From a virus (taxonomy: Duplodnaviria; Heunggongvirae; Uroviricota; Caudoviricetes), in IMG/VR virus record IMGVR_UViG_2778261360_000007, positions 1 to 4,138 of that record: 4,138 bases of DNA. The stretch is one strand, 5' to 3'. Made by a program: the position numbers. Positions 3,001 through 4,138 of this stretch are shown here, piece by piece. Numbering within the stretch: the first letter of the stretch is position 1; each line of letters starts with the position of its first letter.

Positions 3001-4138
3001 ATAAGTAGTCCGGCATGCGTAAGCGCATCCAGTGGTGCCTTCAGGATATTGTCCAGGTCGCGGCGGCGCTTATCCGGTGGCTCTGCAATAATCTTTATCG
3101 CCAGCCTTCCGGACAGGTTTAATTTCAGCCGCGGCTGGCGAACAATAAGTGCCACATCCCGGCGATAACGCTCACCGGCTTTTGATACAAAATATGTGCT
3201 GCCACGGCGTCGCCAGTAAGTGTTCACCGTCGGCGGGTAAGGTAAAACCAAATCTATGAGCATCAGTCACCTCTTTTACCCAAGCACGCCAGTTGCAAAG
3301 GCGTGATCAAGAAAACGAAAAATTAACTCAATCTGAGAGCCGTACTTTTTCTCAAACTCCAGCGGGTCTGCATGAAGTTCGTTGTGGTGCTCCCGGCACA
3401 ACGGTAGCGTGAAAATATCGTGGGCCTTTGTCCCCATTCCCCCCTGACCATGACCAATCAGGTGATGCGGATCGTCAGCAGGCTTACCACAACACGCACA
3501 CGGCTGTGTCTTTACCCAGCGCGTGTACTTTTCATTAACCCAGCGACGACGTTTTGGGCGTAACATAAAAGACTCCGGCGACTCCGGATCCACTTTCAGC
3601 GCCAGCACCTTTTTCGCCTTATCCTGGATGATGCTGGTGGCAGTAACCGAAGGCACAAGGTCACTTTCCCGGGTGACAGACGGCACAACAGGCTTCGGTA
3701 ATCTCAGTGCCTTACGGGCTGCACTTTCCGGTAAGGCATCCGCCAGGTCATTACGAACCAGCCACCAGCACAGTTCCGGCATTGTCACAACGTGGCTGTC
3801 ATCAAAACCGAGATCACGACGGACTACGGACAACACCCAGCGGGCACAGTTATCCGTTGCCATTGATTCCAGACGTTCCGTGAACTGATCGCGAAGCAGG
3901 TTATCGCAGTGCCAGCACAGACGGATTGCGCCCGGCGCGTGTCGCATTGTGGTCATGTTCTCGCTGTGCCATCCGGAATGAGGCCACTGGCAGCCTTTTT
4001 CACGAAGTAACCAGCTCTCAAGGCATTCCACGCCACCAGCACGACGGATCACCGCCTCATGGCGGAACACGGCCCGAACGGCAGGATCATCCGCCAGCGG
4101 TTGTGATGCTGCCGGAACGGCACCACTGGCAAAAGATG

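Follow-up and report, generated by a model that had tools for sequence, protein, structure and literature searches.

Does a cluster of three Chi octamers in one phage gene reflect the use that the phage makes of the RecBCD enzyme of its host, or does it follow from the codons and amino acids of the protein encoded there? The locus that raises this question is a 4,138-bp stretch of phage DNA (hereafter the window), in which an initial annotation had noticed three such octamers and had put forward both explanations. By exact search of both strands, the window contains exactly three copies of 5′-GCTGGTGG-3′, which together cover 408 bp, and none in window 1–3593. The annotated count and two of the annotated locations were correct, whereas the third octamer had been placed at 3623–3630, ten nucleotides from where it lies (Table 1). 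All three positions carry the exact octamer. The hosts are enteric bacteria, in which RecBCD reads this octamer: 4109 of 5426 complete E. coli genomes contain prophages matching the window, which also matches phages of Shigella and E. coli.

Genomic context of the Chi octamers

The window cuts off the DUF968/YdfU gene, whose first ~127 nt lie past position 4138; the full length is 990 nt, as annotated in relatives that are 97.8% and 95.5% identical. The encoded protein matches Pfam DUF968 over aa 117–283 (E = 4e-80) and has an HNH-like domain at its C-terminus, for which the HNHc_6 match is weak. Together with the Pfam match of the adjoining resolvase gene (Table 1), this bears out the initial annotation, in which the octamers were assigned to a DUF968-like gene next to rusA. 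The first 116 residues lack any Pfam model. The motifs CQWPHSGW, CWHC, and CWW of this N-terminal part are among the best-kept octamers in distant homologs, and its conserved Cys/Trp motifs may, to judge from their sequence, form a metal-binding domain.

Downstream of DUF968 and on the same strand lie the genes for RusA, Q, a TerB-family protein, a DUF3927 protein, and a DUF1737 plus SASA esterase. The gene order of DUF968, RusA, Q, terminator-like hairpin, accessory (moron) genes, and SASA esterase is that of annotated lambdoid relatives, and the window represents a nin/Q region from a lambdoid prophage. The position of Q fixes its orientation on the phage map, so that low window coordinates point to the late genes and the right end, and the window runs inverted relative to the standard lambdoid map. 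The top match to the window among complete E. coli genomes covers only 1–3593, at 95.7% identity, and the best match of the gene is 97.8% identical.

Several features of the Q region are recorded here in their own right. The terminator-like hairpin and its T run, a consensus match only, lie ~65 bp downstream of Q. In lambdoid phages, the tR′ terminator, on which Q acts, sits at that spot downstream of Q. The stretch between Q and the TerB gene is ~410 bp shorter than in L002, an O157-type prophage that is the closest relative here; L002 carries three tRNA genes (Arg, Arg, Ile) at this place, and ARAGORN finds zero tRNA genes in the window stretch. The TerB-family gene and the small DUF3927 gene, between Q and the SASA esterase, are named TciA and TciB in some phages. 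In Stx phages, toxin genes occupy this position, and the two genes therefore look like accessory (moron) cargo.

Table 1. Positions of the Chi octamers and of other features in the window and in two related genomes. Residue numbers follow the in-window reading frame of the DUF968 ORF.
Sequence	Feature	Position	Strand	Description
Window	Chi1	3633–3640	+	Antisense; sense strand gCC ACC AGC = Ala166-Thr-Ser
Window	Chi2	3762–3769	−	Sense strand tGC TGG TGG = Cys123-Trp-Trp
Window	Chi3	4033–4040	−	Sense strand GCT GGT GGc = Ala33-Gly34-Gly35
Window	DUF968/YdfU gene	3276 to beyond 4138	−	ORF; houses all three octamers
Window	DUF968 N-terminal part	3790–4136	−	aa 1–116
Window	rusA	2904–3263	−	Holliday-junction resolvase gene; Pfam RusA, E = 5e-15; directly downstream of DUF968
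Window	Q antiterminator gene	2218–2913	−	Phage_antiter_Q, E = 1e-82
Window	Terminator-like hairpin	2155–2132	−	Hairpin and T run (AAGGCCCGCCGCTGAGCGGGTTTTTTT)
Window	Stretch between Q and TerB gene	1986–2217
Window	TerB-family and DUF3927 genes	1390–1985	−	Between Q and SASA esterase
Window	L001-identical segment	4136 to about 3900		100% identical to L001 (Stx2a-prophage type)
Window	L002-identical segment	About 3510 to 3300		100% identical to L002 (O157-prophage type)
L002	Stretch with three tRNA genes	22112–22521		Between TerB gene and Q
mEp460	DUF968 Chi sites	38199, 38470, 38599	+, +, −
mEp460	Head and tail genes	1131–23103		22 kb, Chi-free on both strands
mEp460 (L004)	Palindrome CCACCAGCTGGTGG	41705–41718		14 bp, in DNA methylase gene

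The Chi triple relative to chance and to codon usage

Local Chi density is 7.4 per kb, against 0.27 per kb in 150 kb sampled from E. coli K-12, the genome of which contains 1008 Chi per 4.6 Mb (Zheng et al., 2025; PMC12315714). The cluster was thus rightly described as denser than the E. coli average, and the genome-wide comparison that had been proposed as a check puts that average ~30 times below the local density, so that the observation is not refuted. Dinucleotide-preserving shuffles of the window contained a mean of 0.17 Chi, with three or more in 0 of 200. By Poisson calculation, ~3.6 triplets this tight are expected per E. coli genome, and the present one was chosen after the fact; density alone is therefore not decisive.

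Codons are more informative about what the protein imposes. Synonymous enumeration over the 286 encoded residues finds just three spots at which Chi could be spelled on either strand, and it is spelled at all three. Two nulls, in which codons were either resampled from the window's own usage or permuted among the gene's own codons, produced a mean of 0.65 sites, nearly all from the CWW motif, with P(≥3) between 5e-5 and 2.5e-4 (stand-alone p-values that are inflated because the cluster was chosen after the fact). CWW with the usual Cys codon TGC yields Chi2 ~60–75% of the time. Composition, the second of the two explanations first offered, thus accounts for Chi2 and fails for the full set; the Chi triple exceeds chance.

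The main rival to a functional explanation starts from these same codons. It holds that the octamers arose by chance from Trp-Trp, Gly-Gly, and Thr-Ser together with codon use, and were spread, unselected, with a successful gene. We regard this as unlikely. Chi1, Chi2, and the choice of the cluster after the fact speak for it most strongly: CWW by itself makes Chi2 with a probability of 0.6–0.75, and a handful of equally tight triplets is expected in any E. coli genome. The use of 3/3 possible contexts, for which the null is ~1e-4, tells against it.

Conservation of the three octamers

Homologs of the DUF968 gene were compared in a close set (n = 76 distinct sequences, ≥88% nucleotide identity) and a distant set (n = 14, 54–77% nucleotide identity), the latter from Citrobacter, Kosakonia, Pantoea, Sodalis, Rosenbergiella, Yersinia, E. 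albertii, and an O157 prophage. Because the homologs are related to one another, the counts that follow are not independent events. In the close set, Chi3 is kept in 74 of 76 sequences and Chi2 and Chi1 in 75 each; in the distant set, Chi3 is kept in 8/14, Chi2 in 9/14, and Chi1 in 1/14.

The close set is uninformative as proof of selection, since 57.5% of degenerate codons are equally invariant (joint p ~0.04). The three octamers stand at only the 21st–25th percentile of octamer conservation in this set, an unremarkable rank that also suits an origin by coincidence and descent. Across the 14 distant homologs, Chi3 and Chi2 fall within the top 2% of the gene's 851 octamers for conservation. 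At Chi3, Ala33 is encoded by GCT in 11/14 distant homologs, whereas GCT makes up 20% of Ala codons gene-wide, and codon 33 is the most codon-conserved among 17 conserved Ala/Gly columns. GGT encodes Gly34 in 9/14, and all four bases occur at the third position of Gly35, which falls immediately beyond the octamer. That GCT-GGT is held against codon usage in distant genera while the neighbouring free position varies argues against descent without selection.

The other two sites behave differently. Cys123 is TGC in 9/12 distant homologs, equal to the gene-wide TGC usage of 75%, and Chi2 thus follows from the conserved CWW without extra selection. Chi1 has an ordinary conservation rank in the distant homologs (50th percentile), where the amino acids themselves change, and its loss outside the close clade is again what coincidence and descent would give. 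In these codon data, the evidence for nucleotide-level constraint is good for Chi3, absent but unneeded for Chi2, and absent for Chi1. The comparison of orthologs that had been suggested at the outset accordingly finds octamers conserved at synonymous positions. The presence of both orientations is confirmed too, but not their equivalence: the coding-strand octamers Chi2 and Chi3 are kept across genera, and the opposite-strand Chi1 only in close relatives. In all likelihood, Chi1 is a copy of more recent date that is neutral or slightly useful.

Strand and position on the phage map

By synteny with mEp460, Chi2 and Chi3 are top-strand sites on the phage map and Chi1 is a bottom-strand site. 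The orientation of Chi2 and Chi3 would be the active one if RecBCD enters the phage DNA at its right end, an entry point that we infer, whereas Chi1 would be visible only to RecBCD coming from the side of the replication genes. Chi2 and Chi1 face each other, 129 bp apart. Chi activity is raised by purines at nucleotides 4–7 of the 3′ flank and lowered by T or C (Taylor et al., 2016; PMC5041463). These nucleotides are GGAA at Chi3, GTTC at Chi2, and TAAC at Chi1, and by this rule Chi3 should have a favourable flank and be strong, Chi2 a disfavoured one and be weak, and Chi1 a mixed one and be intermediate.

The complete genomes of relatives place these sites in a wider pattern. mEp460 contains 20 Chi in 44.5 kb, 16 top-strand and four bottom-strand, and 15 of the 20 lie at 33–43 kb, from the replication through the lysis genes. 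The order in mEp460 is DUF968, Q, lysis genes, and right end of the record, with the terminase at the left; its top-strand DUF968 gene lies ~6 kb short of the right end. The head and tail genes of mEp460 form a long stretch that is Chi-free on both strands (Table 1). ST64B contains 20 Chi in 40.1 kb, 17 top-strand and three bottom-strand; its sites are spread more evenly, and its tail module is different (Mu-like). Lambda has zero Chi on either strand.

A second tight Chi triple is found in a DNA methylase gene, 2–3.5 kb downstream of DUF968 in many relatives. In mEp460 it includes the palindrome CCACCAGCTGGTGG, which consists of two opposite-strand Chi octamers sharing two bases, and another, single Chi 340 bp beyond the palindrome. 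The same combination of palindrome and single octamer recurs at this distance downstream of DUF968 in many viral contigs.

A recombinant junction close to Chi1

The DUF968 gene in the window is itself a mosaic, with one segment identical to L001 and another identical to L002 (Table 1). Above about 3600, the window is 93–100% identical to L001 and only ~55% identical to L002. The switch lies within the gene at about 3510–3600 (best about 3540–3600), 40–100 bp from Chi1, and E. coli matches by the thousand end at 3590–3593. The conserved DUF968/HNH domain, the sole stretch similar enough to recombine, begins at the switch. At least 120 viral contigs share the sequence of a 45-nt probe spanning the junction, which makes the probe non-diagnostic. 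The L002-type part runs on through Q to the esterase and is Chi-free over those 3.6 kb, and L002 itself has 9 Chi in 44 kb. Judging from its sequence, the part with Q, TerB, and the SASA esterase is derived from a different, Chi-poorer lineage.

The position of the switch invites a gene-specific explanation, in which the facing Chi2 and Chi1 would mark a preferred exchange point at which N- and C-terminal halves of DUF968, or flanking modules, are swapped between lambdoid phages. That the window is recombinant so near to Chi1, and that thousands of E. coli matches stop at the same place, would fit such a hotspot. However, the junction is the limit of homology between the gene types (about 55% identity upstream), and RecBCD activated at Chi1 would preserve L001-type DNA at lower coordinates, where the window is L002-type. 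With a single case to draw on, we consider a hotspot highly improbable. A junction caused by Chi1 was likewise rejected as the main explanation, the parental arrangement being reversed relative to simple Chi-stimulated invasion. It is also very improbable that the inward-facing pair is kept as a unit that makes DUF968 a preferred site of module exchange among lambdoid phages. Were that so, a break between Chi2 and Chi1, or RecBCD arriving from either side, would yield a recombinogenic end exactly where the N-terminal half, which is variable, meets the conserved HNH half.

Chi enrichment across related phages and prophages

We examined 101 loci bearing homologs of the gene, which comprise annotated E. 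coli prophages, the whole of mEp460 and ST64B, a Stx2a phage, 16 genomes of other genera, and 80 viral contigs. The flanks outside the DUF968 gene contain 948 Chi in 1.73 Mb (0.55 per kb), 81% of them on the DUF968 coding strand. In 24 dereplicated loci (548 kb), Chi ranks first of the 168 permutations of its letters, with 272 copies (about 0.5 per kb) against 70 for the next permutation and a median of 17. The bias to the DUF968 coding strand is 82% for Chi and 68% for all permutations pooled. Sense Chi number 223, where Markov models of order 2, 4, and 6 predict 28, 66, and 176.

A codon-aware expectation was derived from the protein sequences and pooled codon usage of 518 long ORFs of the relatives. 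These ORFs contain 151 sense Chi against 34.7 expected, with 45% of possible contexts realised; without the DUF968 ORFs, the numbers are 113 and 20.5. The same calculation gave 34 observed and 11.1 expected for 150 kb of E. coli K-12 (27% of contexts realised), and 0 observed and 1.3 expected for phage lambda (0% realised). At 0.5 per kb, the relatives have ~2× the Chi density of the E. coli host. The excess over the codon-aware expectation implies that Chi is positively selected across the phage lineage, and more strongly than in the host. Both the surplus in genes other than DUF968 and the fourfold lead of Chi over any other permutation of its letters are hard to reconcile with octamers that arose by coincidence in one gene and spread with it.

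The DUF968 triple is thus one expression of lineage-wide selection for Chi and not a device of this gene. Given ~0.5 Chi per kb, chance alone should produce about 0.4 such triples per phage, and the cluster is therefore a local peak inside these phages and no outlier. In a profile centred on the gene, Chi is dense between −6 and +4 kb; because the loci were gathered by homology to the DUF968 gene, a peak at the gene is biased, and it was not used as independent evidence. Neither the DUF968 protein nor RusA is needed to account for the octamers. A functional link between RusA and Chi beyond the usual gene order is unsupported; the Chi sites persist in mEp460 and ST64B, where rusA lies elsewhere (upstream of DUF968, with one other gene between). 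Of the recombination-associated setting that had drawn attention to the cluster, then, the proximity to rusA stands, while the enrichment is phage-wide, strand-biased, and already in the literature.

A search with lambda-type proteins only (Exo, Bet, and Gam) found zero homologs of these three in the 101 loci, including the whole of mEp460 and ST64B. The 823-aa “exonuclease” of L002, examined because it might make that prophage a Rec+ counter-example, has only its C-terminal domain in common with ST64B sb30 and mEp460 gp26. [quoted passage not shown]

An excess of Chi in prophages could also have a host origin. A resident and possibly defective prophage might have gained Chi as chromosomal DNA does, for double-strand-break repair, a possibility that Zheng et al. 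voice for the prophage-dominated data of Bobay et al. (PMC12315714). The ~3× excess of Chi over codon usage in E. coli ORFs, and the resemblance of prophages in many E. coli genomes to the window, are in keeping with it. Against this, the same three octamers occur in the complete phage genomes mEp460 and ST64B, and further complete phage genomes carry the gene at 89–92% nucleotide identity. The relatives also exceed the host ~2× in density and by 45% to 27% in contexts realised, and their strand bias tracks the phage map and no replichore. Such amelioration is, in our assessment, highly improbable.

Proposed role of the Chi sites in phage growth

The three octamers are probably working Chi sites of a lambda-like phage lineage that relies on host RecBCD. 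Weighing against this are the Chi-free portion from Q to the esterase, the unremarkable conservation within the close set, the relatedness of the homologs, a Chi2 that needs no selection and has a disfavoured flank, and the choice of the cluster after the fact. This Chi-rich lineage of temperate phages from enteric hosts includes mEp460, cdtI, SfIV, ST64B, and some Stx2 phages. The octamers, their codon contexts, the codon-aware excess, the conservation, the family-wide enrichment, and the strand bias are all observed; the entry of RecBCD at the right end and a benefit to phage growth are inferred from the cited papers and the classical lambda work cited there. Of the two options initially offered, an influence on RecBCD processing is the better one.

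Phage DNA in linear or rolling-circle form would, in lytic growth, expose a double-strand end on the Q-lysis-cos (right) side. Host RecBCD would enter at this end and unwind the DNA leftwards, towards the replication genes. Each top-strand Chi that it met would have some chance of switching the enzyme from degradation to the loading of RecA on the 3′ strand; given that chance per site, a series of Chi would protect the phage DNA and drive recombination by RecA and RecBCD. Such recombination would produce packageable concatemers, in place of a phage-encoded Red/Gam module.

If this is correct, the DUF968 gene offers a gene-scale example of how a phage without recombination genes writes the Chi of its host at synonymous positions. 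Chi strand and density can, moreover, flag those segments of mosaic prophages that come from a lineage relying on host RecBCD; here the contrast lies between the Chi-bearing 5′ part of DUF968 and the Chi-free part from Q to the esterase.

Comparison with known systems

The octamer in the window is identical to the Chi of the E. coli chromosome (about 1008 in K-12, or one per 4.6 kb, with a leading-strand bias), is presumably read by the same RecBCD, and is likewise found above codon-aware expectation. Relative to chromosomal Chi, however, density is ~30× higher locally and ~2× higher across the related phages, and polarity is set by the phage map (cos and right end) instead of the direction of replication.

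The lambda red gam chi+A to D mutants, and the synthetic multi-Chi arrays that protect linear DNA, share with the window top-strand Chi that are active from the right cos end. Several Chi in series raise the chance of recognition (PMC12315714; PMC5041463). These are laboratory mutations and constructs in a phage that by nature lacks Chi, whereas the octamers of the DUF968 gene occur naturally within a coding sequence and are conserved.

Phage P1 contains 50 Chi in 94.8 kb and requires RecBCD (PMC12315714). Like the lineage considered here, it is a temperate E. coli phage that uses host RecBCD for growth, and Chi is its most frequent octamer. Unlike that lineage, it is not lambdoid, has a different architecture and mode of packaging, and its Chi have a role tied to recombination between terminal repeats.

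The closest parallel is phage LLS, which has no Rec module and the growth of which is enhanced by RecBCD (Zheng, Casjens, Davidson, Amundsen and Smith, Genome Res 2025; PMC12315714). LLS has 23 Chi, 20 of them oriented so as to be active when RecBCD enters at the right end, and these are concentrated near that end (PMC12315714). Among lambdoid phages without a Rec module, 62 of 68 have at least eight Chi in the active orientation; such phages have 8–25 top-strand Chi, again concentrated near the right end (PMC12315714). By comparison, lambda, 21, 434, Sf6, and P22 have zero active-orientation Chi, and the integrase clade of the ST64B type is named “no Rec module, many Chi” (PMC12315714). An excess of Chi over expectation in lambdoid phages and prophages that lack a RecBCD inhibitor had been reported earlier (Bobay, Touchon and Rocha, PLoS Genet 2013; PMC3784561).

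The relatives of the window share the features of the LLS type: a lambdoid gene order, 20 Chi each in mEp460 and ST64B with 16–17 on the top strand, clustering in the right-hand quarter of mEp460, and no homologs of lambda Exo, Bet, or Gam. These features are seen in the whole-genome relatives, and the window is a 4.1-kb piece with two Chi in the active, top-strand orientation and one in the inactive orientation, and with a Chi-free portion from Q to the esterase. The cluster in the window is an instance of a phenomenon already described, and nothing new in kind. The two papers treat whole genomes and do not mention DUF968/YdfU (PMC12315714; PMC3784561); unreported in them are the triple inside DUF968, the use of every possible codon context, and a Chi3 that has been kept across genera.
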